Positions 1-21,660 are shown, numbered from the stretch's first letter. The stretch is 64,000 nucleotides of DNA from Candidatus Micrarchaeia archaeon (GCA_049966775.1 JBMFTZ010000001.1:21167-85166), one strand, 5' to 3'. Notes: generated by a model from the sequence alone, not told the origin. Program-made: numbers and translations.

Positions 1-1098
1 TATTATATTTGAGAGCAAGGACATAAAATCCATCTGCTCGCCTATCGACCTTGAGAAATCTACTATGAACGCGTCGACAATCGTGAAATTGAGGAATGGT
101 ATGAAAGTGAGCCCCGCAAGCAGGTAGCCAAAGATGTCAACGCCACCAGTTAGGCTGCCAACCAGGAATGACGACGGACCAGATCCGGTCACATACGCAA
201 AGAGCAGAGACAGGAGCGCACCAGCCATTGAAGGACCGCTGCATACAGAGCTCGGTATGCACACCGCAATCAGGTTTGTGTCTATAAAACCGTACGTGAT
301 AGTGGTCAAAAGCGGGTATACGAGGCCAAGACCTAGACCGAAGGCAATCATGGCGCCGCCGAACGTCCTAGTGAACCCGAATGTTCGCATCACCAAGCCA
401 AGTGTAAGGAAGACCGATAGGAAGAGCAGCGAGCCCGAGAGTATCAGCAGCTGCAGCTGGCTTATCATAAGCGCAAACATAAGCCCAGAGTAGGCAATCG
501 GGAGCAGGTTGTCGATTTCGCCAGGTAGCAGGGCCACGTTAAAACCTACCGATAGGTATTCGGGGGGCACGTCCGGCAGGGAAGCAGTAATCGATAGGGA
601 GGGCACTATGCCTGCCATGTAGGAAACCACATATGTAAATTCTGCGGCAGTTGATGCCACTCCATTGAAAAGCGAAAGGTCGCACACTGAGAGCTGGTAT
701 ATGTCGCTTGCTCCGGAGCAGCCGCTCTGCAGCGGCAGCTGGTAGCCCAGAATGTCCACCGCATAGCCCTGCGGCACTATGTTAAGCCCCTTCGGCCCGA
801 AGGCGCCCTGCGGGTTTATGAAGAACAGATACGAGAACGCGCCAAACACGAGTATCATCACTATGGACAACACTGCCTCATATATCTGCACGCGCGCCCA
901 CGACTTTGCGCCATCACTTGCTATTACGGTTGCAAGCATATATACGAGCGCAGCCACCAGCATGACCACAAGCACAGCAATGAATGCTATAGGCAGCCAT
1001 GTCAACGGCGTGAACATAAATCCCAGCAGGGGTGCGCTCATGGGGAACGCTGCAAAGAGGCGCGCAAGCGCAAGCATTGCAAATATGGCGATTACCAT
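1..1098 (-). CDS. polytopic membrane protein, tandem-family paralog 5 (C-terminus cut by window edge)
   Basis: I translated the minus strand by hand. ATG at 1096-1098 overlaps the TAA of the upstream gene (TAATG) and the frame stays open for 366 codons to position 1: MVIAIFAMLALARLF...SWARVQIYEAVLSIVMILVF...LVMRTFGFTRTFGGAMIAFGLGLGLVYPLL...DFSRSIGEQMDFMSLLSNII. It carries both family motifs. It is absent from the ORF track only because no stop lies in the window. Confidence 0.75.
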   Translation of the reverse strand, partial: MVIAIFAMLALARLFAAFPMSAPLLGFMFTPLTWLPIAFIAVLVVMLVAALVYMLATVIASDGAKSWARVQIYEAVLSIVMILVFGAFSYLFFINPQGAFGPKGLNIVPQGYAVDILGYQLPLQSGCSGASDIYQLSVCDLSLFNGVASTAAEFTYVVSYMAGIVPSLSITASLPDVPPEYLSVGFNVALLPGEIDNLLPIAYSGLMFALMISQLQLLILSGSLLFLSVFLTLGLVMRTFGFTRTFGGAMIAFGLGLGLVYPLLTTITYGFIDTNLIAVCIPSSVCSGPSMAGALLSLLFAYVTGSGPSSFLVGSLTGGVDIFGYLLAGLTFIPFLNFTIVDAFIVDFSRSIGEQMDFMSLLSNII

Positions 1099-2180
1099 TA
1101 CAACAGCCTCTTAAGGGTCCTAGACGAACTCAGGCTCTGGGCGCCGAGCAGGTCGCCCAGCACCTCCATGAAATTGTACGATATTATGAACGAAAGCACC
1201 ACGCTTATAACGTAGAAAAGCGACGGTTCCATCACGCTGCGTATGAAGCCTATCAAAATCCCTGAGCCCTTGGTGTTGCTCTCCACGATGCTTTGAAGCT
1301 GCGTGAGGGTGCCAGTAACGGAGCTGAAGCTTGATGCGGAAGCGGAGCCGCTCACAAGCGAACTGTATGATGAGCTGCTTGCGACCGGAGCGGATACAGT
1401 AAACGACGAAGTGAATACGTATAACATGAGGGGCAGCACTATGAAGAAACCGACGAACATCCCCAGGAACGCGCCTCCTGCAGCTCTGGTCCACGGGATG
1501 GTGCGCAGCACAATGCCTGCAAAAAAGAACAGCGGGAAGAGCTTGTATACTATCAACAGCACAAACATCGTGGCAAGAAGCAAGCCGAAGAACGCGCCGG
1601 TTATATTGAGCATCATCTTGATCACGCTGTTCACCACGGTAAGCCCGGCCCATGGCGAGAACGCAACGCCAAAGAATACTGGCTGTATCGTGACCTGCAC
1701 TGAAGCCAGGAACGATACCACCATTTCGTTTATGATAAGCTCTATGATAGGCACCACCATGCCAAGCGAGGTGCTGTAGAGCGCCTCGCAGTCGTACATG
1801 TATATGCCGCTTCCGAACGTGCCCTTGCCTATCGCCAGGAAATTACCGGGTGTTGAGACCGAAGTGACCGCAAACGCGCCCAAGAAGACAAATACTATAA
1901 GCAGCGTTATGACCACTTCGCCTATCTCGCTTTTTGCGAACCTGACGAGCTTATCCACTTTTATCGCGTAGCCGATGGCGTAGAGCATGCCTGCTATGAT
2001 GAGCATTATAAGCATCAATATCAGGGATATGGAAAGCAGCGTCGTTACGGAGGTGCCACCGGGCAGCACATTGCCTCCAGTGAAGAGATTGCTGCAGAAG
2101 GCGGCGGCATCTGCGCCAGATATGCTTGGCGCCGCTAACAGAAGCAGGGCAACCAGCAGCAATACGTTTTTGCGCATCAT
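1098..2180 (-). CDS. polytopic membrane protein, tandem-family paralog 4 (signal peptide plus multiple TM helices)
   Basis: 360-aa ORF. N-terminal MMRKNVLLLVALLLLAAPSISG. Motifs KSEIGEVVITLLIVFVF and VLRTIPWTRAAGGAFLGMFVGFFIVLP. Start/stop overlaps with both neighbours. Confidence 0.8.
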   Translation of the reverse strand: MMRKNVLLLVALLLLAAPSISGADAAAFCSNLFTGGNVLPGGTSVTTLLSISLILMLIMLIIAGMLYAIGYAIKVDKLVRFAKSEIGEVVITLLIVFVFLGAFAVTSVSTPGNFLAIGKGTFGSGIYMYDCEALYSTSLGMVVPIIELIINEMVVSFLASVQVTIQPVFFGVAFSPWAGLTVVNSVIKMMLNITGAFFGLLLATMFVLLIVYKLFPLFFFAGIVLRTIPWTRAAGGAFLGMFVGFFIVLPLMLYVFTSSFTVSAPVASSSSYSSLVSGSASASSFSSVTGTLTQLQSIVESNTKGSGILIGFIRSVMEPSLFYVISVVLSFIISYNFMEVLGDLLGAQSLSSSRTLKRLL

Positions 2181-3571
2181 ACCAGCCTCGCCAATCCCGC
2201 AAGCTCAGTGTCGCCTCCGAGCAGTGAGGAGACTCCGAGCACGGCTGACAGTGTAACCATAAGGTTTATGAGCGGCAGGAAATAGGCGGTCACGCCCATT
2301 ATGCCGTAGATCTGAAAGAGCATGTATGTGGCAGGCATCACGCTGCTCGGCGGGCACATCGCGGGCAGGTAGAAATACGGGGCCACGTTGCCGCTTTCTG
2401 CGGCTGAAAGCAAGCCGGCTCCAACGCTGTAGAAAGGTATGAGCAGCACGCCTACGTCTTCGGCCTCGCCTTCTAGTAAGTTGTCACCTGGGGGCATGCA
2501 GCCTAGATGGCCAAGCGCCTGCTGCACGCTTGGCATTGCGAAGAAGTTGAGGGTATATGTGCTTGTCGAGCTGGAAACACTGTTTGAAGGTATGGAGGTT
2601 ACTGTAGAATAGCCGAAGGCTGTGTTGTAGTAGGCGCTGCTGTTTGCAAGGGAAAGATACTCCATCGCGTATATGGCAGGCAGAAAGACGAGGAAACCCA
2701 ATGCAGCTGCAATCAAGAGACCGCCAATCTTCCTTGTAAAGAACACGGAACGGAGCAGCAGCCCGAAGAATATCAGGAACGGCCATACGTCTATCGCTAT
2801 GACGTTAATGGAGAGCTGCGCCACGAACGATTCGACAGCTGTCGTCATCAATGTCCCTAGCGGCGTGAGGAGCCTGTATATCATCGAGTAGCCTGAAAAC
2901 GGGGTAAACTGCACATGCAGCAGGAAATCGGGCACTGAAAGCGTGCCATACAAGGGTATTACGCACGGGCTCACCCACCCGGGGTAGACGCACACGTTAA
3001 CCTGCGGGCTCAGCTTTGAGAGGAAGCCTATCCACGCATCGAACAGAAAAGCGCCGTTGTAGTCTGCTACCGACTGGTTTGTGAGGTTTGCCATTATCAC
3101 GCTCGTGGCAGCAAGCGGATAATCCAGCTGCGCGGTAAGGCTCGGGCTTGAGCCGAGGTTCACCATGCTGCACAGCCCGCTGAAACCTGTAGACGGATTG
3201 CCGCCCAGGTAAGCACCGAGTATGTTGAACGGGTTTGATGTTGTGGATTCGTAGCCGTTTATGTTGTTGCACATTGTGGTTATAGCATTCGAGTTCATAA
3301 GTTTGGTGCTATTGAGGATTGAGATATAGGTGGAAGCTATCACGTACGCGGAGCCAACCACTATGGCTATGAGTATGGCGGTGCCTATGAGCTGGTAGAA
3401 CTCGTTCGTCGCTCCCGCCTTGACCGTGGGGTTGCCAAGGAGCGCGCCTATTATGTACCAAAGCGCTATGAATGCTGAATCGAGCAACAGGGCCATGAGC
3501 ACAAGCGGCATAAGCATGCTTTTCACTGACGTGAATCCGGCATTGAACAGGAACATGCTTATCGGTATCAT
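2177..3571 (-). CDS. polytopic membrane protein, tandem-family paralog 3
   Basis: 464-aa ORF. Motifs TNEFYQLIGTAILIAIV and LLRSVFFTRKIGGLLIAAALGFLVFLP. Ser/Thr/Asn-rich loops between TM blocks. ATGA overlap with the downstream paralog. Confidence 0.8.
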   Translation of the reverse strand: MIPISMFLFNAGFTSVKSMLMPLVLMALLLDSAFIALWYIIGALLGNPTVKAGATNEFYQLIGTAILIAIVVGSAYVIASTYISILNSTKLMNSNAITTMCNNINGYESTTSNPFNILGAYLGGNPSTGFSGLCSMVNLGSSPSLTAQLDYPLAATSVIMANLTNQSVADYNGAFLFDAWIGFLSKLSPQVNVCVYPGWVSPCVIPLYGTLSVPDFLLHVQFTPFSGYSMIYRLLTPLGTLMTTAVESFVAQLSINVIAIDVWPFLIFFGLLLRSVFFTRKIGGLLIAAALGFLVFLPAIYAMEYLSLANSSAYYNTAFGYSTVTSIPSNSVSSSTSTYTLNFFAMPSVQQALGHLGCMPPGDNLLEGEAEDVGVLLIPFYSVGAGLLSAAESGNVAPYFYLPAMCPPSSVMPATYMLFQIYGIMGVTAYFLPLINLMVTLSAVLGVSSLLGGDTELAGLARLV

Positions 3572-3579
3572 TAAGTCAC

Positions 3580-4740
3580 CTACAGATTGCCCCAGAATGT
3601 TGATGCGCCTTCCACGCCGCTGTTCAGGGCCTTTGCAACACCCATCGCAAGCCCCGCCGTGACTCCTATGTTTATCGCAAACATGAATATTCCCACAAAC
3701 ATGAACTTTGAAATCTCCTCTATTATGGTGTTTGTCACATACGGCGCTGTCAAAACGCTTGATGCCAGTGATCCAAGCTCTGCCAGGGGATTGAGACTTA
3801 TGCCGGCGCTGCTCACGAACGACTGCAAGTAAGATGGAGCAGTGCTCGGGTTGCCCGCTACGAGGCTGCTCGAAGGAAGCTCGGCAAAGAACGCGCTTGG
3901 CGAATAGGGCGTGAAGGTGTAAGCGTATGAAAGGTACTTGTATGAGGGGTTGTTTGCCGAAAATATCCAGCTCACCGCGTAACCGTCAAACCCCACCATG
4001 AGCGGGTATACGAGATACGCCGCTATCGCTATGGCAAGAAACGCGTTTGCGGTGTTCCTGAGGTTGCCGCCAACAAACGAGAGGGAGCGCATCACCAGCG
4101 CCACGGGAAGCACCACTATGAACGCGGTGTACTCAAGCAGAGGCAGCATCACCCACTGCAGGTAGAGGGCGCCGATCGTGGTTATGAGAACCATCGCGAA
4201 AACAGACATGTACACGTCGCTTAGTATCTTGAACACCTTGCCAAGGTTCATTCTCGTAGCGAACGAGACTGACAGGCCATTAAATTTTGCCGCAAACGCG
4301 AGCGGGTTATAGCCGTTTAGTATACTGCCGTACGACACCTCGAATATTGTGCTCTCTATGCTGTATTCAACTGACGTGAAGTACACCTTTGATAATAGGC
4401 TCAATCCGGAATTCATCGTAAGGTTTCCTATGTAATAATCAGCGAATTGGAACGGGCTGAGCGCCGATCCGGTCACTGTGCTGCTCATCGAAGTGGAGAT
4501 GCTGCAGGCGGCGCTAGCCATGCCGAGCAGCACCATAATTATTACTGCGCTGAGGAGCGCCTGGGTGAGCTCGGTTCTTACTGCGCTCGTCACCTTTCCG
4601 CTGAACCTTGAAGGCAGAATCCTAGAAATCGCAAGTATAAACGCACCTATAAGCAGGCTTACCAGTATTACGAGCAGGTTTATGCTAAGCCAGCTGTTCA
4701 CATATGTGGAGCCGCCCAATATCGCACATGCGTTTATCAT
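3580..4740 (-). CDS. polytopic membrane protein, tandem-family paralog 2 (most divergent motif)
   Basis: 386-aa ORF. Motifs RTELTQALLSAVIIMVL and VMRSLSFVGGNLRNTANAFLAIAIAAYLVYP. 7-8 nt spacers to neighbours. Confidence 0.8.
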   Translation of the reverse strand: MINACAILGGSTYVNSWLSINLLVILVSLLIGAFILAISRILPSRFSGKVTSAVRTELTQALLSAVIIMVLLGMASAACSISTSMSSTVTGSALSPFQFADYYIGNLTMNSGLSLLSKVYFTSVEYSIESTIFEVSYGSILNGYNPLAFAAKFNGLSVSFATRMNLGKVFKILSDVYMSVFAMVLITTIGALYLQWVMLPLLEYTAFIVVLPVALVMRSLSFVGGNLRNTANAFLAIAIAAYLVYPLMVGFDGYAVSWIFSANNPSYKYLSYAYTFTPYSPSAFFAELPSSSLVAGNPSTAPSYLQSFVSSAGISLNPLAELGSLASSVLTAPYVTNTIIEEISKFMFVGIFMFAINIGVTAGLAMGVAKALNSGVEGASTFWGNL

Positions 4741-4747
4741 ACCAACA

Positions 4748-6091
4748 CTACGTAAGCTTCATCTTCCCTATGCCCATCTTGCTCAGGCTCATCGTGCCGC
4801 CCAGCATCCTTGCTATCTGGTTCACCACGGCGAGCCCTATCACCAGGTCGAACACGAACAGGAAGAACTGGATCAGCAGGTAGCTTGTCTGGTTCACCAC
4901 AAAGTTTAGAATGCCCACTATGCTGCTTGACAGGGGCGAAAAAAATCCGGCATTTGAGCCGGCGTTAAACCCGTCTATCATTTGGGTACCGATATTCGGA
5001 TAGCCTTGCACTACCGGATTGCCGCCCATGACGAACGTGAGCAAAAAGCCCCCACGTATAAAATACAGGTCATTTTCGAAATATTGCACGACGTAATTGA
5101 TCAGTTGCCCTAGAAGACCGGGCGCCGGGGGTGCCGAGCTCACTGACACGATTTGCGAAGGCAGTATGCTGGACAGATAGTCGGATATGGGCTGGTTAAA
5201 GCCCACGAGCAGCACTGGATACACAAGCGAGGCGCCTATGCCGAGAGCAATAAACGTGCCGCCGATGCCACGCGTGAAAGGCAGCGCCCTGAGTATAATG
5301 CCGACAGGCAGCAGCCCGCCCAGGCCCAGCAACATGACCACGCCCAAGAAGTCGTACTGGAACTGGAACGCGTAGAGCATTGGGAATATGACAAGGGTGA
5401 ACATGTCCTTTATGAATGAGAACACCGCCGCAGAAGAGAGCGTCTCTATGTAGCTGCTAACGTAAATGTTAGCAAGGGAGCCAAACTGGATTGTCAGTAT
5501 GGGCACCGGCACTGGCGGTATCGGCAGCGGGAACCACGTGCCCAATGATATGCTCTTCAGCGCGGCTATGCCCTGCGACACGCCCATCATGGTAGCAAAG
5601 TCGACATACGACTGCGCAAGCCCGTATGCAAGGTAGCTTGTGGCGCCGTTGCACAGCCCCTGGAGGTTTGTGTTAAGGCTGCCCAATATGGATGATGAAC
5701 CGCTCGTTTGCAGCGACGCACTGTTGCCCACAAGCATGTTTGCTATGGCGCTTGCTATGACAATCGATGAGAACAAGACCACTATTATGATTACGCTTTT
5801 CGAAACTTCCCAGAGCTCCGTCCTATACCAGCCTTTCAGCGGGCCGTAGTTGAGCACCTCTCCAGCCATATAGGAAACCGCTATAAGGAGGAATGAGATG
5901 GCAATGCCGATTGCTGCGAGCCCGATGAACGTGGCGAAAGCTGAAGCGCCAAGAGTCATGCTGCATACGCTCTGCGCCGTGGACATGCCGGCAAGCGCGA
6001 GCAGCAAAAGCAGCATAAGCGGGGCGGCATGGCGCATACTGCGAGAGTAGCGTGCTGCAGCCTGCAAACCGCCCGGCCTTCGCTGCGTCAT
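4748..6091 (-). CDS. polytopic membrane protein, tandem-family paralog 1 (signal peptide)
   Basis: 447-aa ORF. Hydrophobic leader LMLLLLLALAGMSTAQS. Motifs RTELWEVSKSVIIIVVL and ILRALPFTRGIGGTFIALGIGASLVYP. Its start overlaps the stop of the small upstream ORF (ATGA). Confidence 0.8.
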   Translation of the reverse strand: MTQRRPGGLQAAARYSRSMRHAAPLMLLLLLALAGMSTAQSVCSMTLGASAFATFIGLAAIGIAISFLLIAVSYMAGEVLNYGPLKGWYRTELWEVSKSVIIIVVLFSSIVIASAIANMLVGNSASLQTSGSSSILGSLNTNLQGLCNGATSYLAYGLAQSYVDFATMMGVSQGIAALKSISLGTWFPLPIPPVPVPILTIQFGSLANIYVSSYIETLSSAAVFSFIKDMFTLVIFPMLYAFQFQYDFLGVVMLLGLGGLLPVGIILRALPFTRGIGGTFIALGIGASLVYPVLLVGFNQPISDYLSSILPSQIVSVSSAPPAPGLLGQLINYVVQYFENDLYFIRGGFLLTFVMGGNPVVQGYPNIGTQMIDGFNAGSNAGFFSPLSSSIVGILNFVVNQTSYLLIQFFLFVFDLVIGLAVVNQIARMLGGTMSLSKMGIGKMKLT

Positions 6092-6306
6092 GTGATCACT
6101 ACATAATGCAAACGATACGCATCTGCTTCACATATGAATGAAATCGCATCGCCTTGAAACCCTACAATAGATGCAACGGCGCTGCTTGCCTCGGGGCATT
6201 CATCAACAGGCATTCCATACCTATTGGGATGAAGCGCCCTTTCTGCTTTTGGAGGGCGTGCTGCAACAATATCTAGCCCGGATTTGCGCGCGACTGCAAG
6301 TTCCAT
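6088..6306 (-). CDS. small soluble hypothetical protein (72 aa), possibly the first, leaderless gene of the paralog operon
   Basis: In-frame ATG at 6306 inside track ORF 6088..6615: MELAVARKSGLDIVAARPPKAERALHPNRYGMPVDE.... An AT-rich TATA-like box (rc TAAGTATATATTATTG, about 6325-6340) sits about 27 nt upstream. The stop overlaps the start of the next gene. There is no homology support. Confidence 0.4.
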   Translation of the reverse strand: MELAVARKSGLDIVAARPPKAERALHPNRYGMPVDECPEASSAVASIVGFQGDAISFICEADAYRLHYVVIT

Positions 6307-6437
6307 CACATCCCTTTTGTTCTGCAATAATATATACTTATCGCTATTATTATTATCGTTATTTTTGGTTCCTGCGATTGATGTTTTGAAGCCCAGCACG
6401 GAGCGATAAACTTTCGCGGGTACCAAGCAGGAAAGGG

Positions 6438-7160
6438 CTATCGCTTGAGTAGTCTGAAGCGCTTCATGTACATCTCGCTCTGCAGCACCGCAAGGAAGGG
6501 CAGTATGAATAGGGAGTTGAATACGAGCATCGCGTACCTCGAGTAAACGGTGCCCGAAGCTGCTATGAACACAAAATCGAACAGCGTGATAAGCGCGATC
6601 GCAAGAAAGAGCCACAGTATGAAATAGTCGAAGCGCCTGAAGAAGAAGGAGACGCTTGCCCTGAAAGACCTTAGCACCTTGTTGTCATCTATCACAATGG
6701 AAGCGGGCGCGTAGAACACGAACGGCGTAACAACAAGTATTGCCACGCTGGTGATTATGCCTGAATAACCGGTGCCGAAGCTTAGCATGTCAACCAGTAT
6801 TATAACGGCGCTCAGCATCAGCAGCACTATGAAAACCTTGCTCGTATACCTTTCAAGGCCCCGCATTACCTCCCTTGTTATCTTTCTCTGGACGCGGCTG
6901 TGCTTTACTACCACGTTTATCGCAACGATTGCGAAGCTCAGGAAGAGGAGCGAGAAAAACAGCGACACGATTACCACCATGGATGAAAGCATGCTCATGT
7001 TGGAGAAGATGCTGCCGGTGCGCAGGAATATGCCGCCCGCATCATTGTAAGTTGGAAAGGCAGCAAATACAGGTATCAGGAACGCTATTACGAAGGCGAG
7101 CGAAAACGATAGTATTAGCTTTATGTTGCCCGCGTATGTGGACCATGCGTAAGAGAGCAC
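6438..7160 (-). CDS. integral membrane protein (about 6 TM), unknown function, operon partner of the pilin-like gene
   Basis: 240-aa ORF with alternating hydrophobic helices and basic loops (KHSRVQRKITREVMRGLERY, FFFRRFDY). It lies directly downstream of 7247..7627 on the same strand. Confidence 0.7.
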   Translation of the reverse strand: MLSYAWSTYAGNIKLILSFSLAFVIAFLIPVFAAFPTYNDAGGIFLRTGSIFSNMSMLSSMVVIVSLFFSLLFLSFAIVAINVVVKHSRVQRKITREVMRGLERYTSKVFIVLLMLSAVIILVDMLSFGTGYSGIITSVAILVVTPFVFYAPASIVIDDNKVLRSFRASVSFFFRRFDYFILWLFLAIALITLFDFVFIAASGTVYSRYAMLVFNSLFILPFLAVLQSEMYMKRFRLLKR

Positions 7161-7246
7161 ATTGGTTATGCCAGCACCTGCCGCTTTTTGGCTAAGCTAA
7201 ATAATAAGGGAAAGAAAAAGATAAAAGCCTTACATCGTAGCAGTAT

Positions 7247-7627
7247 TTAGGTGGCCTTGCAAGCGCTTGCAATGGAAGCGTTGCCCGTTATGACCTGGAG
7301 TATGTACGGCGCTATGACAGCTATGATCACGCCGATGACGCCGCCGAGGATCATTCCCATGCCGTAGCCCTGCACCTGCCCCTTCGTTTGGCCTGGTATT
7401 ACGTGCGCGCCGGCATAGAGGGCGCCTCCAAGTATTATAAGCACAAGGCCGAGTATGAATATGACGCTGACCACACCGTTATATACGCTGCATATCGCAT
7501 TTACTGCAGTAGTTGAGGATTGCCCATACGCAGCTGAAACAAGGCTCAGCAAAAGCAATAACGACATTGCGGGTCCGAGGATTCCCCTCGCGTTGAATAA
7601 CTTGCCGAACAATAAGCCCGTGTTCAT
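7247..7627 (-). CDS. VirB2/TrbC-like (CedA1/TedC-like) two-helix pilin-type protein
   Basis: 126 aa. Long leader ending LLLLLSLVSAAYG|QSS. It continues NAICSVY, then Gly-rich TM1 (VVSVIFILGLVLIILGGALYAG), a short basic loop (HVIPGQTKGQVQG), Gly-rich TM2 (MGMILGGVIGVIIAVIAPYILQVITG) and a short tail. This matches the architecture, and partly the sequence pattern, of Agrobacterium VirB2 as I recall it (..NNICTF..LAVLGIVAIGISWMFGRASLGLVAGVVGGIVIMFGASFLGKTLTGG). Confidence 0.6.
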   Translation of the reverse strand: MNTGLLFGKLFNARGILGPAMSLLLLLSLVSAAYGQSSTTAVNAICSVYNGVVSVIFILGLVLIILGGALYAGAHVIPGQTKGQVQGYGMGMILGGVIGVIIAVIAPYILQVITGNASIASACKAT

Positions 7628-7643
7628 GAAACCACTTCGCCTC

Positions 7644-7673
7644 TTTATATATACTAAAATACATTTAAATATG
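7644..7673 (-). promoter_or_regulatory. TATA-box region upstream of the pilin-like gene
   Basis: On the minus strand there is GTATATATAAAG (7644-7654) about 22 nt upstream of the ATG, and CATATTTAAATG (7662-7673) further up. Either gives a leaderless or very short-leader mRNA. Confidence 0.4.
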
Positions 7674-10950: not shown

Positions 10951-11304
10951 CTATCTGCGCACGTCAACCTCTAGAAGGCCTATTATGCTGCCGATGAACA
11001 CGAGCACAGCCCCGACGACAAAGCCGCCGCCGTCGACCATGCTTATTATGGAGGCAACAAGCGCCATGACCAGCCACATCTCGCTGCTTGCCTTCTTCTT
11101 GCCGAGCTCGCTTGCTGTGACAAGCACAAGAGCGCCGAGGAGCAGGCCGATTACCCCGAGAGTTCCGATGAAAACCCCTGAGCGGAACATCGTCAGCATC
11201 ATCGCGCCGACGCCCCCGAGCACAAGCGTGAAAAGCGCACCTATTATTATGAGAACGCCGCCTATGTAGAACAGCATCTTCGGTGCTATAAATCTGTTGG
11301 CCAT
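10951..11304 (-). CDS. small integral membrane protein, unknown function
   Basis: 117 aa, four hydrophobic Gly-rich helices. The overlapping alternative frame 10964..11317 is Arg-rich and implausible. Confidence 0.6.
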   Translation of the reverse strand: MANRFIAPKMLFYIGGVLIIIGALFTLVLGGVGAMMLTMFRSGVFIGTLGVIGLLLGALVLVTASELGKKKASSEMWLVMALVASIISMVDGGGFVVGAVLVFIGSIIGLLEVDVRR

Positions 11305-14279: not shown

Positions 14280-15473
14280 TCATACAGAGCATGCGCTGGT
14301 TATTGCCGATATTGAAGTGCCAGTTATAATCGAAAGCACGTACGGCGCCACCATCGCTATGATCACGCCGATGACGCCGCCGAGGATCATTCCCATGCCG
14401 TAGCCGAGCACAGGCCCGCGCTGCTGGCCCGGCAGCACATGACCGCCGGCATAGAGGACGCCGCCGAGGATCATGAGCGTAAGGCCTAGTATGAATATGA
14501 CACTCTCTATTGTGGTGTAAACGGAGCAGATGGCGTTCGTAGCTGCGCCAAGGTTGGCGATCGAGCCTGAGCCAAAGGTGGCCGAACTAGAACCTGAGCC
14601 AGAGCCTGAGCCAGAGCTCGAACCCCCAGTTGGGGGCGTGCCGCCGGAAAACACTGTGGTGGTAGACGTGCTGGTTGATGTTGTAGTGGTGGTGGTAAAT
14701 ATGTATGCTACAACCGCATAGCCGCCAGCCCCGTTAAGCGATCCCGAAACGGTATACGTTCCTGGCGATAAGTCTATGCACTGTGCTGCATAAGTGGTTT
14801 CATACGAATCGCCGCCGTTGTCGTAGAATAACTGGGTGCAACCGGGGGGCACAGTTATGCTCGAGCATTCAAACCAGCCGCATGACAGCGATAACACCAC
14901 GTCTGACGGGTTTGACACCGAGAAGGCCCAGTTGAACGAAGATGTGCCGCCGGACGCCGCGCCGCTCTCCGTAGTGTACGGGACAGACGAGTCAACAGCC
15001 ACGCCGCCGACAGCTATGTCCGAGTGGTCGGAAGCATCACTGCAGACGTTTGACCCCTGATTCCCTGCGCTTGCATAAGTTGAATATGAAGTGGCGTCGG
15101 GCGACCACGTATAGCTCCTTAGCGCGCCGTTGCCATCACCGCCATTGCAGAAGTAATAGTTGGCGCCGCTAGGCAGCGTGTAGCTGGCCGACCTGCTGCC
15201 CGTGGTCCCACCATACCCCACTATTGAAAATACAGATGTAGACGGTGAGCTTGAGCTCGCTGGGCAGCTGTAAGTTGACGAGCAGTAGCTAGAAGGGGCA
15301 GCACAGCCAACATAGCCGCCAACAACGCAGCAGCTTTCATAGCTCGGGCATGTTACGACACAGCCGCTGCCGGGGCATAATATGGTATAAGCGGTGGATG
15401 TATTAGAAACAAGCGAGAGGGCCGCAATGGCAAGCACCACCGATAGCATAATACTACTATAATGCTCGAACAT
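14280..15473 (-). CDS. modular surface protein: N-terminal anchor/signal, Cys-rich head, beta-rich Ser/Thr domain, Thr/Ser/Gly linker, C-terminal VirB2-like two-helix module
   Basis: Track ORF is 14280..15548. The likely start is M26 (ATG at 15473; MFEHYSSIMLSVVLAIAALSLVS). Cys cluster CPGSGCVVTCPSYESCCVVGGYVGCAAPSSYCSSTYSC. Linker TTTTTSTSTSTTTVFSGGTPPTGGSSSGSGSGSGSSS. The C-terminal ~85 aa is closely similar to 7247..7627 (NAICSVY..VIFILGL..LGG.LYAG.HV.PGQ..G...GYGMGMILGGVIGVIIA..APY.L..ITG). Confidence 0.75.
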   Translation of the reverse strand: MFEHYSSIMLSVVLAIAALSLVSNTSTAYTILCPGSGCVVTCPSYESCCVVGGYVGCAAPSSYCSSTYSCPASSSSPSTSVFSIVGYGGTTGSRSASYTLPSGANYYFCNGGDGNGALRSYTWSPDATSYSTYASAGNQGSNVCSDASDHSDIAVGGVAVDSSVPYTTESGAASGGTSSFNWAFSVSNPSDVVLSLSCGWFECSSITVPPGCTQLFYDNGGDSYETTYAAQCIDLSPGTYTVSGSLNGAGGYAVVAYIFTTTTTTSTSTSTTTVFSGGTPPTGGSSSGSGSGSGSSSATFGSGSIANLGAATNAICSVYTTIESVIFILGLTLMILGGVLYAGGHVLPGQQRGPVLGYGMGMILGGVIGVIIAMVAPYVLSIITGTSISAITSACSV

Positions 15474-15570
15474 GCTTCCAGCCTCGCCGAACGCTTTCCG
15501 GCAATATATTAAGCACCGAAAAGATATTAATAATGTGCGCGCATGCATAGGGCACGAGCGCCGTGCGCCT

Positions 15571-16125
15571 TTACGAGAGAGCAGGTGCTATGCCGCACTC
15601 GCCGAGGAACGCCGCATCGCCCTGCATTACGAGCTTGTCTGGCGTTATTATCGTGCTGTTCACGCTGCTGTAGTTTATGAACACGGAAGGCATGCTTTTG
15701 CTCACATTAATGCATTCGCTTACCGGCAGCTGCGTGGAATTGGATGCTTCCCCGAGCGCCTTGGAGCTCGTGAAGCATGCGGTCTGATTGATAACAAAGA
15801 AGTCAATAGTGGAAGCATTCCTGTGGTATTTGGCGCTCGAAACTATGTTCTCCACGATGCTTGTGGCGCAAGGCTCTGTGCTTGCAAACACCGTGCCGTT
15901 ATAGGCGGTCATGTATATCGCTACGCTCTTCGCTGAATGAAAGTTGCTTTCAAATGTGTAGAAGGGCTGCCCCGTGCTTGGATGATAGAAAAAGAGCAGC
16001 AGATCCAGCGCCACGAGCGCCGCTATCGCGTAATATGCAGCAGCATTGCCTTTTTCTGCTTGGCGCGCCGCGGCTCCAGCCTTCACGGCTTTGCCTGCAT
16101 TTCCATTGTTGTTGCTTCTCTGCAT
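15571..16125 (-). CDS. type II membrane-anchored protein with a 4-Cys ectodomain
   Basis: 184 aa. Basic N-terminus, one TM (AAAYYAIAALVALDLLLFFY), then a ~135-aa domain with 4 Cys and several N-x-S/T sites. The domain is homologous to the C-terminal domain of 16132..18189. Confidence 0.7.
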   Translation of the reverse strand: MQRSNNNGNAGKAVKAGAAARQAEKGNAAAYYAIAALVALDLLLFFYHPSTGQPFYTFESNFHSAKSVAIYMTAYNGTVFASTEPCATSIVENIVSSAKYHRNASTIDFFVINQTACFTSSKALGEASNSTQLPVSECINVSKSMPSVFINYSSVNSTIITPDKLVMQGDAAFLGECGIAPALS

Positions 16126-16131: not shown

Positions 16132-18189
16132 TCACCCTAGCAGCTTGCCAAGCGTGCAGCCGCTGCCATACGTCGCATTGCCCTGCGCGGAGAGCATGTT
16201 ACCGTACACGCCTTTGTAAGCGATATAGCTCGGCGAGCCGCTGCCGAGGTGTATTATGGGCGTGCCCGCAGCTAGCAGCTTGTTGAAGCACTGCACTCCC
16301 GAAAGCGATGCGTTGGCAGAAATGCACGAATAGTTCTGCGCTGCGAGTATCGCCACGCTCTTGCCTTCACTCTGCAGCGACTTCTGCAGCGAAGCTGCGC
16401 ACAGAAGCTGAGCCGCATTGAACGAGCCCGAATCGTTGACTATTATGGCAGCGCTGTGCGCGCTGTGGAGCCTGCTCGCAAACATCGAAAATGGTAGGAA
16501 CGCGTTAGCGCTCTGCGCCGCTGCGAACGTCGCATATGTATAGATGAGCACCAGTATGAACAGCACTATGAAAACGATGCTCCACGAGCGCCTCACCCGC
16601 CTGTTTAGCTTTATCTTCTTTCTCTTTTTGAACCTTGCATATGTTAGCGAGTATACGAGCAGCACTATTATTACGCCTATTATGAACGATAGAAGCGCCG
16701 CATATGCTGGCGATGCGGCGATCTTGGCGCTTACCGAACCGGTTGGGCTGTATAGCATGTAGCTTACTATGCCCCCGTCAAAATCCTTTACCAGTGCACC
16801 GAAAGTGAACGGCGTGCCGGAAAATGCGGCTATGCCTTTGCTCACGGCACTCTCGTTGGCAAGCATCGCCTGCAGCGAGGAGCTGCTCACGCCCTGCATG
16901 AGCTCAAGGGCAATGCCCTGCTGCTCCGCGGAGAGCTTTGCAAGCTCTGGTGGCACATGCCTGAAATCCAGCTGGTCCCTTATCGCGGCGACAGATGCGC
17001 TGCTTATGCTGGAGTTGAGCGGAGCGTAGAGCGCGTCAAGCTTCGAATACAGCCCGGTTACGTTAGAGATGCTGGCAAGCAGCTCTGTATTAGCAAGCGC
17101 TATGCTCTGGTTTATGCCCAGCTTCTTTATTGCTGCAAAAGTGGCTACTAGTTTAGACACGCTCTCATTTAGCGTTGCATTGTTTATTCTCGACAGCAGC
17201 GCCTGCGCATTGAAAAGCGTGGAGTTGTATTTTGGCATTGTCGCATTGAGGAAAGCGTCAAAAGCGGCGGTTTCCTTAGCCCTCACTACAGGCGCTATAT
17301 ACGCATATGCGAGGTTTGAGGCGTTTGCGCTGAGCTGCATGATGCTCGCATTGGAAAGCGGCAGCATCGAAAGCTGCTGCACCGTGTTCTGCATGCTTTG
17401 CAGCAAAGTGGAATTGAAAGTGGTGTATTCGCACATTCCTATGTCGACGCAGTACCACGGTTCCTGCGTTGGCGCCAGATAGCTTGGGCACGAAGAAAAG
17501 TTTGAAGCGGAGAAGTTCTGCGGCACTGGAAATATCGGGTTCTGAGGCAGCACCGTTGCTATGTGAGAGATGTTGCTGAGGGCGTTTTTCATTGCGGATA
17601 TGCTCGCATAAGGATCGACAGAAGCGTTGTGAAGAGCATTGTAGAACGCGCTGTAGTTTGCCACGAGGTTGCCGTATTTCGCAGAGAAGTTCATTATGCC
17701 AAGGCCCATTACGCCTGTCGGTCCACCGTAATCGGGGAGCCAGTATGAGCATATCGGCACGGTCTGGCACGAGAAGCAGCCGTTTGTGGCGTTGCACGTA
17801 TAATAGTTAAGCCCTGTTTCTATGCGGCAGTCGTCAAGCGGCGGCGCGGCCTGCGCCTCGTAATTGCTCATTGAAGCATTGAGAGATGCGAGCACTGACT
17901 TGCTCGGCGCATACACACTCAGCACATAAGGCCTAAGCGCCTTGTATATCTGCGTTGCGTTTGTGAGCATTGAGTAGTTGCCATGAGTGGCATTTACGAC
18001 AATGAAAGAGATGCCGTGCTGCATTATCGTGTATGCATTGCCGCCAATGCTTTCATTATGCATCGAATAGGAGCTTATCGTCGAATTGGGCATGTATATA
18101 TGAAGGTACTGCACAAGCGACGCATTGGCGCCCAGTGCGGTAGTTGCGAGGAGTGAAAGCATAATTGCAGCAAGAATTTCAACGCGCAT
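16132..18189 (-). CDS. large sequon-rich surface glycoprotein with two TM helices and a C-terminal 4-Cys domain
   Basis: 685 aa. Signal peptide MRVEILAAIMLSLLATTALGANAS. By my count roughly 25-30 N-x-S/T sequons. TM hairpin around ARFKKRKKIKLNRRVRRS. The C-terminal ~125 aa resemble 15571..16125. Confidence 0.8.
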   Translation of the reverse strand: MRVEILAAIMLSLLATTALGANASLVQYLHIYMPNSTISSYSMHNESIGGNAYTIMQHGISFIVVNATHGNYSMLTNATQIYKALRPYVLSVYAPSKSVLASLNASMSNYEAQAAPPLDDCRIETGLNYYTCNATNGCFSCQTVPICSYWLPDYGGPTGVMGLGIMNFSAKYGNLVANYSAFYNALHNASVDPYASISAMKNALSNISHIATVLPQNPIFPVPQNFSASNFSSCPSYLAPTQEPWYCVDIGMCEYTTFNSTLLQSMQNTVQQLSMLPLSNASIMQLSANASNLAYAYIAPVVRAKETAAFDAFLNATMPKYNSTLFNAQALLSRINNATLNESVSKLVATFAAIKKLGINQSIALANTELLASISNVTGLYSKLDALYAPLNSSISSASVAAIRDQLDFRHVPPELAKLSAEQQGIALELMQGVSSSSLQAMLANESAVSKGIAAFSGTPFTFGALVKDFDGGIVSYMLYSPTGSVSAKIAASPAYAALLSFIIGVIIVLLVYSLTYARFKKRKKIKLNRRVRRSWSIVFIVLFILVLIYTYATFAAAQSANAFLPFSMFASRLHSAHSAAIIVNDSGSFNAAQLLCAASLQKSLQSEGKSVAILAAQNYSCISANASLSGVQCFNKLLAAGTPIIHLGSGSPSYIAYKGVYGNMLSAQGNATYGSGCTLGKLLG

Positions 18190-18402: not shown

Positions 18403-21400
18403 TTAGCTGCTTGCTGCCTTTGCATATAGCTGCTGTATGAATGCGTTTGCCGCTGCGGTTGTCTGGTTGGCGTAGTAGCCCGCTATCAGTATGCGGTTTG
18501 TTCCATACGCCTGGTCTATCTGCGTTGTGGGCGTCATTGAGATGTTGTATGCCTTCTGCAGCTGTGCGCTCAGCGTGTTGACGTAGCCGCTTCCCACCAG
18601 TATCAGGTTGCTCGCCGGGTTTGCCTGTGAATCAAGCACTACTAGCGGGCTTGTTGGCAAGCTGCTCAGCAATACTGGCTGGTCTGACGTGCTGACTGAC
18701 GGAGTTGCCGTTATGTTGCTTATGCCCGATATGGAGTAGTGCGATGCCTGAATGCCCGATGCTGTTATGTTGGCTATGCTTACGTTCGGTAGGTTTGTTG
18801 CTTCACCTATAGTGTAGCCTGGGCCTGATGTTGGGTATATCTTGTAGCTCTTTGTTATTGTGGTTGTTGATGGACCTGCCGCGAACTGGAGCATGTCTAC
18901 GCTCTTCGCAAGGTTCAGTGTTACTGCTGTTGTGCCAATCGATGCCACTTCGCTGCCGCGCTCTGTTATGAAGCCCTGAGGCACATTGAATGGGCTGTTG
19001 TAAGTGTATCCTGAAGGCGTGTATGTGACGTTGTTAGAGAGCGATGACGGTGTTCCTGAAGGCGCTGTTGCATTGAGGTAGTACAGAGGCGTTGCAGAAA
19101 TGCCTCCCGTAGAGTTGGTTATGCCCACTGTTAGTGTGTCTGGCGCCGAGTTTACTCCTGGTACGGGATATTCTGGTATAGAGTAAGTGAAGTACTCATT
19201 CCTTACTCCTGGCGTTGACACGCTTGTTGGTGCCAAAGTGAATGTCTGCTGAAGCTGCCCGGGCTGCTGGTATGTAACGCTTGATCCTGAAGTGAGCAGG
19301 TCATAATTCTTTCCTGCCTGGGTGTACATTATTTCTGGTGATGAGTATGGAGACAGTGTTGCAAGAGTTAAGTAGTTGCCTGACGTGGGTGCGTTTGATG
19401 ATGTATATTCACCAGCGGATAATCCATTCACGTTTATCACATCCATAACATTGGCTGTGAACCCTGGATTTGGCACTGCTGCATGAGAGCTGAGGTACAT
19501 GTTTATGTTTGTGACGTTGTTGAATGGGGCCGACACTGGCAGATAGTAATAATAGTCACCAGCTGGGCTGGCCGTATCGAATGTTGCTGTTTGTGTTGTC
19601 AGGGAGTTTTGCGTTGTGTACCCTGTTACTGCCACAGTAAGTGGGTATGTGCTGGATACAAAGCTGTTTGCTGGCGCGGCTGACACTACTTCTACCACAA
19701 TGGCGTTCGCGCCGGATAGCGAGCTTGATATATAATTTGCAGTTTCTGTAAGCTCATACGGGTTAAGGTTGTATGTTAGCGTTGAGGTTCCTGCTCCTGC
19801 CACCGTGAATGCGTTTGGTATCTGGCTTGTCACTGTGAAGAGGTTTGCCGGCTCTGTTATTGCTGTGTCGTTTACTCCGTAGCTTGAACTACTGCCTGCA
19901 AGGTTCTGGTATGTCACGCTGCTTTGTGTTGAAGTCGCAAGCTGCAGTGCGTCGAAGTCAGTAGATCCCGGGCTTAATGTCTGGCCTAGGAATGTGAGCT
20001 TCCATACCGCTGGGCTTGTCATGAGCTCCATGCTATGGTCTGGAAGTAGAGTCTGGGAGTTTGCGCTTGTGCCATATATTGTTATGCCCTGAAGCTCGTT
20101 TGCAGAGCCACTGCTGGTTGCGTTTGTTGTCCACTGAAGCTGCACGTCGTAGTTGGGGTTTGCGCTGTTGAATGCACTGCCGCTTGAAAGGTTTACTATG
20201 TTGGAGAACAGCTGTATGCGCGCCCACCTCTGGTACGAATACAAACCTGCGAATGTCTGACCCACTTTCACATAAAGCGTGTGGCCGCTGACATTGAACT
20301 CAGTTGTGTTGAACCTTCCTATTGATGTCTCGTTTGTCAGTACTCCGTTGTAGTAAACGCCTATTGCCGCTGGTGTTCCGCTAGGATAGCTAAGGTCCTG
20401 CAGCTTGACCGTGAAGTTGCCTGCCGATATAGAGTGGCTTACATTTACGATTGTTGACGGTGTCATCGCTTGCGCCAGTGAGATTTTGCCTCCTGTGACG
20501 AAATTGCCTGAATTGACGGTTATAGATGGCGGACTAAAGTTGTATGTGGTATAGTTTGCGCCTAAAAGACTGAAGGCCTGGTTTGTGGGCGCGTTGCTTG
20601 TCTTCACATTTATTGGGGAACCGAATATTACCTGGTATGCGAGGTTGGCGTCAACCAGCGCAAGGCTCTTTGCATTTTGGTCGTATACTGGGAATCCTGT
20701 AACCCAAAGGCTTTCTGTTTCACTTGTTGGGCCGCTGCTTGATAGAAGTCCTGCTGGCGCTACTTTGAGTATGTTGTCATATGCTGGGTTGGTGCCCGAT
20801 GAAAATGACGAGAACGCAACGCCACCTCCGTTCTGTGTTGCAGTAACGCTAGTTGCAAGCGGAACGCCTATGTTCACGTAGGGGCTTTCTGCTGTATATG
20901 GTGACGACGCAACTATTGAATATTGCTCAGGATAAACGTATGGGCTGCTAGAACCCTGCAAGGACTTTGTTGAAGTGGCTGCACCTGGATTCTGCGGTAC
21001 TGCTCCGTTGAGCACCGAGCCTATCAGCGCGCTGAAGCCGTATGTTCCGCTTGATATCGCGGTTCCTGACTCGTTGAGCCAAACCTGCGGGTTTACAAGC
21101 GCGTGGCTTGACGAATTCGACACTGACACAACGTGCAGCACGCTTGCCGCCTGTGTCGCATTGACACTCGCGGTTACAGGCACGCTAGTGAATGCAAGGT
21201 TGCCTATCGCAGCTGCGATGTTTGCCGCTGCAACGCCGTCGCTTGGCTTGGCAGCGCTTCCCACAACGATCTGCACCTGTGGCGCTCCTGCGTTGCTTAT
21301 TATTGGCACGTTCTGGAATGTTACAGGGCTTGCGAACGCAAGGCCGAGTCCTAACAATGCCGCGCCTGCTGTTATCGCGGCTATCTTCTTTGCATTTATG

Positions 21401-21408
21401 CTATTCAC
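18403..21408 (-). CDS. S-layer-like surface protein
   Basis: 1001 aa, GTG start with AGGTGA 5 nt upstream. Signal peptide AAITAGAALLGLGLAFA. N-terminal QIVVGSAAKPSDGVAAANIAAAIGNLAF and C-terminal NLILVGSGYVNTL...RILIAGYYANQTTAAANAFI resemble archaeal S-layer N/C-terminal domains. Very Ser/Thr/Asn-rich with many sequons. Strong TATA. Confidence 0.7.
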   Translation of the reverse strand: MNSINAKKIAAITAGAALLGLGLAFASPVTFQNVPIISNAGAPQVQIVVGSAAKPSDGVAAANIAAAIGNLAFTSVPVTASVNATQAASVLHVVSVSNSSSHALVNPQVWLNESGTAISSGTYGFSALIGSVLNGAVPQNPGAATSTKSLQGSSSPYVYPEQYSIVASSPYTAESPYVNIGVPLATSVTATQNGGGVAFSSFSSGTNPAYDNILKVAPAGLLSSSGPTSETESLWVTGFPVYDQNAKSLALVDANLAYQVIFGSPINVKTSNAPTNQAFSLLGANYTTYNFSPPSITVNSGNFVTGGKISLAQAMTPSTIVNVSHSISAGNFTVKLQDLSYPSGTPAAIGVYYNGVLTNETSIGRFNTTEFNVSGHTLYVKVGQTFAGLYSYQRWARIQLFSNIVNLSSGSAFNSANPNYDVQLQWTTNATSSGSANELQGITIYGTSANSQTLLPDHSMELMTSPAVWKLTFLGQTLSPGSTDFDALQLATSTQSSVTYQNLAGSSSSYGVNDTAITEPANLFTVTSQIPNAFTVAGAGTSTLTYNLNPYELTETANYISSSLSGANAIVVEVVSAAPANSFVSSTYPLTVAVTGYTTQNSLTTQTATFDTASPAGDYYYYLPVSAPFNNVTNINMYLSSHAAVPNPGFTANVMDVINVNGLSAGEYTSSNAPTSGNYLTLATLSPYSSPEIMYTQAGKNYDLLTSGSSVTYQQPGQLQQTFTLAPTSVSTPGVRNEYFTYSIPEYPVPGVNSAPDTLTVGITNSTGGISATPLYYLNATAPSGTPSSLSNNVTYTPSGYTYNSPFNVPQGFITERGSEVASIGTTAVTLNLAKSVDMLQFAAGPSTTTITKSYKIYPTSGPGYTIGEATNLPNVSIANITASGIQASHYSISGISNITATPSVSTSDQPVLLSSLPTSPLVVLDSQANPASNLILVGSGYVNTLSAQLQKAYNISMTPTTQIDQAYGTNRILIAGYYANQTTAAANAFIQQLYAKAASS

Positions 21409-21454
21409 TTGCTCACCTAAACATTTTTTGTTGTTCTATTAGTCAATTGAAAAG

Positions 21455-21464
21455 TATTTAAATA
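21455..21464 (-). promoter_or_regulatory. TATA box (TATTTAAATA) for the S-layer-like gene
   Basis: The perfect palindromic TATTTAAATA lies about 50 nt upstream of the GTG start at 21408. Confidence 0.55.
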
Positions 21465-21660
21465 CATATGTTACGTATAATAATTTTTTTATAAATAAAC
21501 TTTTATACTTCGCCATTTGTCAAATTTCCCATCTTTTATTGACATAGCCCTCCGACGCAAGTTCGCTGATACACGTTATGTGCGTTATGCTGCTGCACAC
21601 CCGCGCGCATGCTTCCAGACGCGCCGGCCATGCCAGTCAGGGCACCTATAATATAGTATA

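Follow-up and report, generated by a model that had tools for sequence, protein, structure and literature searches.

What kind of machine is encoded when an archaeal operon joins a small, pilin-like protein of two helices to a string of large polytopic membrane proteins? The question is raised by positions 1 to 7673 of a 64,000-nucleotide (nt) stretch of DNA from Candidatus Micrarchaeia archaeon (GCA_049966775.1, JBMFTZ010000001.1:21167-85166), the whole of which we call the window. A sequence-only reading had proposed a conjugative-type pilus or a cell-cell transfer apparatus. Our analysis identifies this region as the promoter-proximal half of a chromosomal operon of 15 genes that is characteristic of the Micrarchaeota, a DPANN phylum of tiny symbionts. 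We consider it likely that the operon is a domesticated derivative of a type IV secretion system (T4SS) akin to the archaeal Ced and Ted systems. The pilin, an ATPase encoded beyond position 1, and the family of membrane paralogs each match the corresponding part of one machine, and therefore point to a new, elaborated branch of domesticated archaeal T4SS. The cluster is best read as a third such lineage, after Ced and Ted.

Pilin, membrane paralogs, and ATPase

When the open reading frames (ORFs) of the window were read, seven minus-strand genes running from 7627 to 1 were found where the sequence-only reading had placed them, tight junctions included. The string begins with the VirB2/TrbC-type pilin precursor of 126 amino acids (aa) at 7247..7627, identical to MGC8651653.1 (ACP5UH_00145). 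It continues with a polytopic membrane protein of about six hydrophobic segments, called tm213 in relatives (6438..7160; 240 aa from a GTG start, the long N terminus agreeing with the tm213 family consensus). The large polytopic proteins follow: par1 (4748..6091; 447 aa with the first ATG as start, ~429 aa with a start at 6037), par2 (3580..4740; 386 aa), par3 (2177..3571; 464 aa, with the biggest extracellular loop among the paralogs), par4 (1098..2180; 360 aa, carrying the motif LRTIPWTRAAGGAF), and par5 (1..1098; 366 aa and complete, its stop codon just beyond the window edge, 100% identical to MGC8651646.1). Gaps of 7 nt (4741-4747) and 8 nt (3572-3579) separate par1 from par2 and par2 from par3; par3 and par4 overlap by 4 nt (2177-2180), and par4 and par5 by 1 nt (1098).

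The lead protein has the VirB2/TrbC architecture that had been claimed for it, with hydropathy segments at residues 13-35, 40-79, and 85-119 corresponding to a signal peptide and two Gly-rich hydrophobic helices, and a short loop in which H75 and K82 are near-invariant. The signal peptide is likely cleaved at AAYG/QSS. In the AlphaFold2 model (predicted local distance difference test score [pLDDT] of 79), the protein is a helical hairpin with helices at 17-73 and 81-114. The relation to known pilins appears at the level of the family: the family consensus matches PF04956 (TrbC/VirB2) over profile positions 3-97 of 98 with 35.4 bits and an E value of 1.3e-8, above the gathering cutoff of 27.9 bits, and 38 of 82 pilin homologues match it at E <= 0.01 (best E, 1.3e-8). 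The closest orthologue, from locus L008, scores 20.2 bits (E, 6.8e-4). A local likeness to Agrobacterium VirB2 quoted earlier (NNIC against NAIC) did not hold up, with a BLASTP E value of 0.15 and a single-sequence hhalign probability of 0.4%. The VirB2 assignment thus rests on the family-level Pfam match, the pairwise Agrobacterium comparison giving none; judged by that match, the family is a genuine TrbC/VirB2 family. Its members may polymerize with lipid into a hollow extracellular pilus. C123 is invariant and C46 is found in 65 of the 82 homologues, and one can speculate that a C46-C123 disulfide joins the ends of the pilin, mimicking the head-to-tail cyclization of some VirB2/TrbC pilins.

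Are the large membrane proteins true paralogs? The five in the window are 20-26% identical to one another in alignments, and they share the motif LR-x3-(F/W)TR-x2-GG...P, with an invariant core of Arg-x5-Arg...Pro. In hhalign comparisons of the paralog families, every pair gave a probability of 96-99.6% (98.7-99.6% for par1 against the others). A sixth protein with the same motif, 420 aa long, lies just left of position 1, as seen in relatives. By these alignments, all six are mutually homologous and true paralogs; the kinship proposed for them stands, and the count becomes six instead of five. In each, a signal helix and two transmembrane (TM) helices precede a large outer loop and a bundle of TM helices. 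In the par5 model (pLDDT, 88.8; predicted TM-score, 0.83), the signal helix is followed by a two-TM hairpin, an outer domain of mixed alpha/beta structure, and a bundle of helices. When the par5 profile was compared with 1.84 billion representative sequences, 920 clusters matched, and the best 150 listed were orthologues only.

A link from the paralogs to known systems comes through CedA. The NCBIfam model Ced_CedA (NF041796) is matched by 5 of 112 paralog members, with a best E value of 2.6e-7. In addition, residues 188-295 of the par4-family consensus, a region that holds the conserved motif, match positions 103-213 of the 259 in the model (E, 0.0027); the window's own par4 has no CedA match. 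These scores are far below the cutoff, so that the matching paralogs appear to be relatives of CedA at most, and not orthologues. Residues 32-97 of par2, its N-terminal hairpin, align with the pilin family (hhalign probability, 69%; E, 4.4e-5), which is suggestive only, given that TM composition could also account for the score; par5 gave nothing in the same comparison. The par2 signal is reminiscent of the relationship reported between CedA and CedA1 and between VirB6 and VirB2 (PMC9905601). The consensus of tm213 matched no T4SS family, and its only match was to the BPSS1780 membrane-protein family of NCBIfam (E, 1.7e-5).

The window itself holds no ATPase of the VirB4/CedB/HerA type. Genes left of position 1 were read from syntenic relatives (75% protein identity, same flanks), and for the window's genome the placement of the ATPase was confirmed through consecutive NCBI accessions on its own 85,170-bp contig. 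The operon does run past position 1, as had been supposed, and a 505-aa P-loop ATPase, MGC8651642.1, is encoded four genes farther left on the same contig. Its Pfam matches are the DUF87/HerA central domain (4e-16), AAA_10 (1e-12), and P-loop_TraG (3.5e-8). The top ranks in NCBIfam are CedD (7.9e-20), CedB (3.9e-17), and the VirB4-like CD1110 (2.5e-16), followed by the VirB4 of Mycoplasma integrative and conjugative elements (5.6e-15), HerA (4.5e-13), TraC (8e-12), and VirB4_CagE (1.2e-8). All scores are below the equivalog cutoffs, at 71 against 600 and 62 against 700 for the Ced models. The family profile spans the whole P-loop domain of the VirB4 structure 4ag5 (E, 1.3e-9), and HerA structures are matched over the C-terminal half only. 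The Walker A (GxxGxGKS) and Walker B (hhhhDEAW) motifs do not vary, and across the phylum the ATPase is 62-89% identical, compared to 35-75% for par5. Automated annotation names some of these ATPases "VirB4 component" or "HerA-like."

The ATPase matches all VirB4-type models over their C-terminal motor part only. Two paralogs of 277 and 278 aa, x277 and x278 (hhalign probability, 97%), whose N termini carry TM helices, may provide the absent N-terminal part. Residues 27-282 of the 894-aa Mycoplasma VirB4 model are matched by the x277 consensus (E, 0.001), and residues 512-808 by the ATPase, encoded by the next gene, a weak but positionally coherent signal. There is precedent for such a split, in that CedB and CedD hold complementary parts of the VirB4 N-terminal domain (PMC11868833), and the T4SS of Patescibacteria has a separate protein, TrsD, homologous to the VirB4 N terminus (PMC12102498). 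We also saw that a 102-aa gene directly downstream of the ATPase gene repeats the last ~80 residues of the ATPase (hhalign probability, 98.2%; L008:15618-15926 and L008:14108-15625).

Gene order and conservation

How widely is this arrangement kept? The scan covered one genome per GTDB species. Relatives of par5 are carried by 121 of these, and counts of loci here and below use the best 80, all of which lie on Micrarchaeota contigs, including the closed genome of the cultured Ca. Micrarchaeum A_DKE. Some cluster-bearing contigs (L036, L069, and those of the protein hits P0004, P0375, and others) are deposited under other names, namely Candidatus Marsarchaeota, Acidiferrales bacterium, Methanothrix sp., and Baltobacteraceae; these are probably mis-binned or mislabelled contigs of metagenome-assembled genomes.

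Gene order was counted from iterative hidden Markov model (HMM) searches of all ORFs in the 80 loci. The full order of 15 genes reads pilin, tm213, par1 to par6, x278, x277, and ATPase, followed by four more genes. These encode the 102-aa homologue of the ATPase tail, a membrane protein with a Zn ribbon, a protein with a coiled coil and a winged helix, and a 780-aa membrane protein whose large, glycoprotein-like ectodomain is rich in N-glycosylation sequons. The order is found complete in 41 of the 80 loci, with par1 to par6 in order in 66. Where enough sequence is available, the block from par6 through x278 and x277 to the ATPase is present in 62 of 70 loci, and pilin, tm213, and par1 stand together in 56 of 60. 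The far end is bordered by topoisomerase VI-B (TopoVI-B), on the other strand, in 43 loci; the near end, in the window and in close relatives, is bordered by threonyl-tRNA synthetase (ThrRS), seryl-tRNA synthetase (SerRS), and eRF1. Thus, the synteny looked for in relatives is there, and the cluster is phylum-wide and chromosomal. The recurrence of these genes and their order over 80 species-level genomes goes far beyond chance. In five species (L056, L063, L071, L074, and L078), the genes x278 to z140, among them the ATPase gene, were not found after par6, and w243 and v780 are inverted in L056, L063, L071, and L074. In some lineages, then, the operon has been rearranged or split.

No relative was found on 2.9 million viral contigs, and plasmid-borne homologues of the ATPase are only 22-28% identical. 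Among the cluster proteins (L008 cluster genes, Pfam and NCBIfam), there was no relaxase, VirD4/TcpA coupling protein, or integrase family. The G+C content of the operon region is even (0.49-0.53) and the same as that of its surroundings. A mobile-element origin was considered and rejected on these grounds and on the flanks shared across species. The fixed order, the housekeeping flanks, and the conservation instead indicate a chromosomal system of long standing that has been inherited vertically and kept under strong selection. All six paralogs hold their order throughout the phylum and are therefore not redundant; the simplest reading is a hetero-oligomeric platform made of all six.

Surroundings of the operon

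On the minus strand at 7643..7653, the sequence reads as a TATA-like box, TATATATAAAG, with its center ~21 nt upstream of the pilin ATG. It is a putative archaeal promoter of the operon and would imply an mRNA that is leaderless or has a very short leader. A T-rich tract, GGCTTTTATCTTTTTCTTTCCCTTATTATTT, read on the same strand at 7199..7229, 18-48 nt past the pilin stop codon, could act as an oligo-T attenuator, giving an excess of pilin over the downstream products.

Between tm213 and par1 lies a 72-aa ORF (ACP5UH_00135 in the Prokaryotic Genome Annotation Pipeline annotation; 6088..6306, minus strand), which had been taken as a small soluble member of the operon, coupled to par1 by an ATGA at 6088/6091. 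It forms a singleton cluster with no counterpart among the 80 related loci, and tblastn and blastn searches of its region against those loci found nothing past the end of tm213. The spacer of ~345 nt in which it sits (6092-6437) is found in this genome only; close relatives have a gap of ~55 nt. The ORF was therefore rejected as a component and is probably spurious, the ATGA is no evidence of coupling, and the true start of par1 may be the internal ATG at 6037. The spacer also holds an A-rich low-complexity stretch, AATAACGATAATAATAATAGCGATAAG, and may be an insertion remnant or encode a regulatory RNA.

The genes flanking the operon are archaeal housekeeping genes, those for ThrRS (with an archaeal editing domain), an amino-acid permease, SerRS, and eRF1. 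In the closest relatives, a 140-aa soluble gene stands between ThrRS and the pilin (L008:3335-3757; also L001-L007 and L010); the window has none, and the pilin and ThrRS start codons are 209 nt apart. Beside the permease, the window encodes a 117-aa Gly-rich protein with four hydrophobic helices (10951-11304, minus strand), which is kept in relatives (117 aa in L001) and has no match to the pilin HMM.

A second pilin-domain protein of 422 aa is encoded at 14280..15548 on the minus strand. The pilin HMM matches it with an E value of 3.4e-35, the signal region and the mature domain being matched separately. Behind its signal anchor, the protein has an ectodomain rich in Cys, Ser, and Thr, which a Thr/Ser/Gly linker joins to a VirB2-type hairpin at the C terminus (residues 331-421), and this hairpin closely resembles the mature part of the 126-aa pilin. 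Fusions of this sort, 177-838 aa long, lie directly upstream of the operon in seven loci (L020, L023, L036, L039, L058, L060, and L062), and each locus has between one and three pilin paralogs. By its domain order, the 422-aa protein looks like a candidate pilus-borne adhesin or minor pilin. To our knowledge, no fusion of a pilin to an ectodomain is found in the described VirB2 families.

Next to this fusion gene is a neighborhood of surface proteins, all encoded on the minus strand: a 184-aa sequon-rich protein (15571-16125); a 685-aa protein full of N-x-S/T sequons that ends in two TM helices and a cytoplasmic tail (16132-18189); and a 1001-aa protein named S-layer protein by NCBI (18403-21408), ~11 kb from the operon. 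None of the three matched the v780 HMM or other cluster HMMs. Farther along the window, the G+C content dips to 0.42-0.45 at 38001-42000 and 52001-54000, compared to ~0.52 elsewhere, and these stretches may be foreign or otherwise unusual DNA.

Relation to known systems and alternative explanations

The Ced system of Sulfolobales and Desulfurococcales (CedA/CedE, CedA1, CedA2, and CedB/CedD) is a chromosomal, T4SS-derived DNA importer, domesticated and without a relaxase, as is the Micrarchaeota cluster. Both combine a two-helix VirB2-like pilin, polytopic paralogs (VirB6-like CedA and CedE in Ced, and probably distant relatives of such proteins in Micrarchaeota), and a HerA/VirB4-type ATPase. 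In Ced, the functions of VirB4 are split over more than one protein (PMC11868833), as may also be so in the Micrarchaeota cluster. Scores of 71, 62, and 17 against cutoffs of 600, 700, and 330 indicate that the two are not an orthologue set. CedA1 is reported to be unprocessed, whereas the Micrarchaeota pilin has a predicted cleavable signal peptide and a match to the bacterial PF04956. Ced has one or two channel paralogs, compared to six fixed ones here. Unlike the Ced motors, the Micrarchaeota ATPase is without an N-terminal domain or TM segment, which two separate genes may supply, and, again unlike in Ced, all the genes stand in one operon. The host lineage is DPANN instead of Thermoproteota, and no UV-inducible type IV pilus partner is known for the Micrarchaeota cluster.

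The Ted system of Thermoproteales (TedA, TedB, and TedC), which we compared by description, is also chromosomal, with a VirB6/CedA-like protein of seven TM helices, a VirB4-like ATPase, and a pilin whose signal is cleaved by signal peptidase I, as is likely at AAYG/QSS (PMC9905601). Ted is minimal, with one channel protein and an ATPase that is a full VirB4, unlike the Micrarchaeota cluster.

Among Bacteria, the closest parallel in lifestyle is the T4SS of Patescibacteria (the Candidate Phyla Radiation), which is related to MPF-FATA and comprises VirB4, TrsD, PrgI/VirB3, VirB6, and VirB2-like pilins. It, too, is near-universal, chromosomal, and relaxase-less in ultrasmall, biosynthetically poor episymbionts, with VirB2-like pilins, often as several paralogs; TrsD is its separate homologue of the VirB4 N-terminal part (PMC12102498), a role for which x277 and x278 are candidates in Micrarchaeota. 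In the sole species tested, it is essential for epibiotic growth (PMC12102498). Tubular structures that are possibly T4SS pili have been described at the parasite-host interface (bioRxiv 10.64898/2026.06.21.733656). This system is bacterial, with a full-length VirB4 and without six-fold VirB6 paralogy, unlike the Micrarchaeota cluster, and the likeness may be one of convergent lifestyle.

The parallel drawn earlier with the five VirB6 genes of Rickettsiales is real, in the sense that divergent paralogs are arrayed in a reduced, host-dependent lineage (PMC2653234). The rvh T4SS carries five tandem VirB6 genes (RvhB6a-e) beside virB3-virB4, ~80% divergent from one another and each conserved across species (PMC2653234), comparable to the 20-26% identity and fixed order in Micrarchaeota. 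The rickettsial copies have a recognizable PF04610 domain with large flanking extensions and belong to a P-type T4SS of diderms, with VirB7-11 and VirD4; in Micrarchaeota, PF04610 is undetected, and there are no outer-membrane or VirB8-11 components. The Agrobacterium VirB/D4 system and other bacterial conjugative T4SS have three core parts in common with the cluster: the VirB2 pilin, which belongs to the same Pfam family, the VirB4-type motor, and an inner-membrane platform of polytopic proteins. Compared with them, the cluster is without VirB1, B5, B7-B11, D4, and a relaxase, and pairwise or single-sequence comparisons of Agrobacterium VirB2 and VirB6 with the Micrarchaeota proteins were not significant.

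Several results weigh against reading the cluster as a T4SS derivative. The 126-aa pilin of the window itself has no significant match to PF04956 in Pfam, its only hit being a sub-threshold one to PF18895 (T4SS_pilin; E, 0.62). A Foldseek search of the pilin model against the PDB gave generic helical hairpins only, with no solved VirB2, TraA, CedA1, or TedC, and the family profile found nothing relevant among PDB sequences and recovered no solved pilin; such uninformative searches are expected, because the fold is so simple. For the paralogs, PF04610 (TrbL/VirB6) was matched by none of 105 par5 members (E <= 0.05), by none of 112 members of the par1 to par4 and par6 families (E <= 0.1), and by none of the six family consensus sequences (E <= 1). 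Their profiles found nothing among PDB sequences, single-sequence hhalign of a paralog against Agrobacterium VirB6 gave nothing significant, and Foldseek of the par5 model against 350,542 PDB chains gave no match at E <= 0.001, all E values being at least 0.5. Chains of R388 TrwI/VirB6 came at ranks 3, 14, 17, and 38, with E values of 0.6-3 and TM-scores of 0.16-0.34 only. A tblastn search of plasmids for a diverse VirB6/TrbL alignment reached Rhizobiales only. The CedA link consists of the 5 members of 112 and the one consensus match, with 17 bits against an equivalog cutoff of 330 bits. Thus, of the VirB6/CedA likeness first proposed, the CedA part has some sequence behind it, and for the VirB6 part neither PF04610 (217 members) nor Foldseek gave a significant match. 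The paralogs are probably distant CedA/VirB6 relatives on present alignments, and this is the least secure link.

On the motor side, the ATPase also scores well against HerA helicases, the VirB4-N assignment of x277 comes from a single consensus match (E, 0.001), and the x278 and x277 families gave nothing in Pfam or PDB profile searches. Observations on cells likewise count on this side. In the sole Micrarchaeote studied by cryo-electron tomography (cryo-ET), the intercellular tubes were assigned to the host and not to the symbiont (PMC11329633), and the A_DKE culture paper makes no mention of pili or a secretion system. The system is known from genes alone, with no filament, cargo, or phenotype on record.

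We nevertheless favor a domesticated T4SS, and one can envision how it might work. A function can be proposed by analogy with DNA import by Ced and Ted, with the Patescibacteria T4SS as a lifestyle analogue, and from the adhesin-like pilin fusions; the existence of a pilus, the stoichiometry of the subunits, the cargo, and the direction of transport are all what we infer in this way. The pilin would be inserted in the membrane and its signal peptide removed. The six paralogs would assemble a membrane platform or pore of fixed stoichiometry, possibly a hetero-ring of six subunits under a hexameric ATPase. The ATPase, held by the two VirB4-N-like proteins, would pull pilin and lipid from the membrane to form a hollow pilus, which pilin-adhesin fusions, such as the 422-aa protein at 14280-15548, might decorate or cap. 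The tube or channel would touch a host (of Thermoplasmatales type) or a sister cell and carry macromolecules. By analogy with Ced/Ted and the Patescibacteria T4SS, the likeliest cargo would be nucleic acid taken up by a biosynthetically poor symbiont.

A fuller version of this proposal, which we offer only tentatively and would not expect to hold in every part, is that the cluster encodes a symbiont-side conduit. One copy each of six CedA/VirB6-like subunits would form a hetero-ring over a hexameric split-VirB4 motor, and host nucleic acids, possibly also lipids, would be imported through a lipid-lined VirB2 tube with a pilin-adhesin tip or through a docking barrel for host nanotubes. Cryo-ET has revealed a 21-nm docking barrel in the envelope of ARM-1, its identity not assigned (PMC11329633), and, in archaeal Richmond Mine acidophilic nanoorganisms (ARMAN) and Micrarchaeota, bridges and pili-like links (PMC4110969, PMC11329633).

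Could the same T4SS-derived machine make a pilus for adhesion or host recognition only, on a Thermoplasmatales host or in a biofilm, with no transport? The large, variable, adhesin-like Cys/Ser/Thr-rich ectodomains on pilin-domain proteins are consistent with this, as are the one to three pilin paralogs per locus, the cluster's want of a DNA-processing enzyme, relaxase, or coupling ATPase, and the S-layer gene and glycoprotein-like surface proteins nearby. However, type IV pili already serve adhesion in Archaea, and six channel-type paralogs with a conserved motor (62-89%) seem excessive for a fiber in a genome of ~1 Mb. The relatives Ced and Ted, and probably the Patescibacteria T4SS, move material (PMC9905601, PMC11868833, PMC12102498). 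We therefore regard a purely adhesive role as unlikely.

The want of a TrbL/VirB6 signal in the paralogs and the HerA matches of the ATPase also bear on another explanation, that of a membrane complex of non-T4SS kind serving envelope biogenesis or the export of protein or glycan (S-layer, surface glycoprotein), with a HerA/FtsK-type ATPase and a small two-helix subunit that is merely VirB2-like. The sequon-rich 780-aa protein at the end of the cluster and the S-layer gene ~11 kb away in the window would fit such a complex, and universal conservation and a chromosomal location suit a housekeeping role. It is the agreement of three components on one system that makes this quite unlikely: the pilin family matches PF04956 above threshold, the ATPase has CedD, CedB, and VirB4 as its best matches, and one paralog family matches CedA. 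Among 18,950-24,736 models, it would be very improbable for three unrelated proteins of one operon to pick matching partners.

A plasmid remnant or an integrated conjugative element, with a T4SS exporting its own DNA, seems very improbable. In its favor, mating-pair formation systems have VirB2-, VirB4-, and VirB6-like genes at their core, archaeal conjugative plasmids carry such genes (PMC9905601, PMC12102498), and the cluster does include a winged-helix/coiled-coil protein. Against it, gene order and flanks (TopoVI-B and ThrRS) are constant across dozens of species, G+C content does not change at the region, neither a relaxase nor an integrase nor VirD4 was seen in the cluster, the viral contigs hold no relatives, and the cluster proteins diverge in step with the species (par5 at 35-75%, the ATPase being highly conserved).

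A domesticated T4SS would be new to this lineage. The literature searched describes no T4SS-like or VirB2/VirB4/VirB6 system for Micrarchaeota or other DPANN, and neither the Micrarchaeota comparative-genomics paper nor the Ced/Ted paper mentions one, in agreement with the initial view that the lineage had no described system. Systems of this kind are known already, and what appears to be new is the lineage, the architecture, and the conservation across the phylum. If the reading is correct, this would be the third independent domestication of conjugation machinery in Archaea and the first in DPANN. Its six fixed CedA-like paralogs, a VirB4 split into two N-like proteins and a motor, and the VirB2-ectodomain fusions would be informative for the mechanism of T4SS in general.

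A central open question about DPANN archaea is how hosts come to provide them with nucleotides, lipids, and other building blocks, and bridges, tubes, and a barrel have been seen without assigned genes (PMC4110969, PMC11329633). The cluster is a concrete candidate for DPANN-host exchange, conserved across the phylum and present in the cultured A_DKE. Patescibacteria and Micrarchaeota, two unrelated radiations of ultrasmall episymbionts, would then both retain a chromosomal, relaxase-less T4SS-like system. If the cluster does encode the symbiont-side conduit proposed above, the machine would be an essential feeding organelle of the phylum, the archaeal counterpart of the Patescibacteria T4SS.

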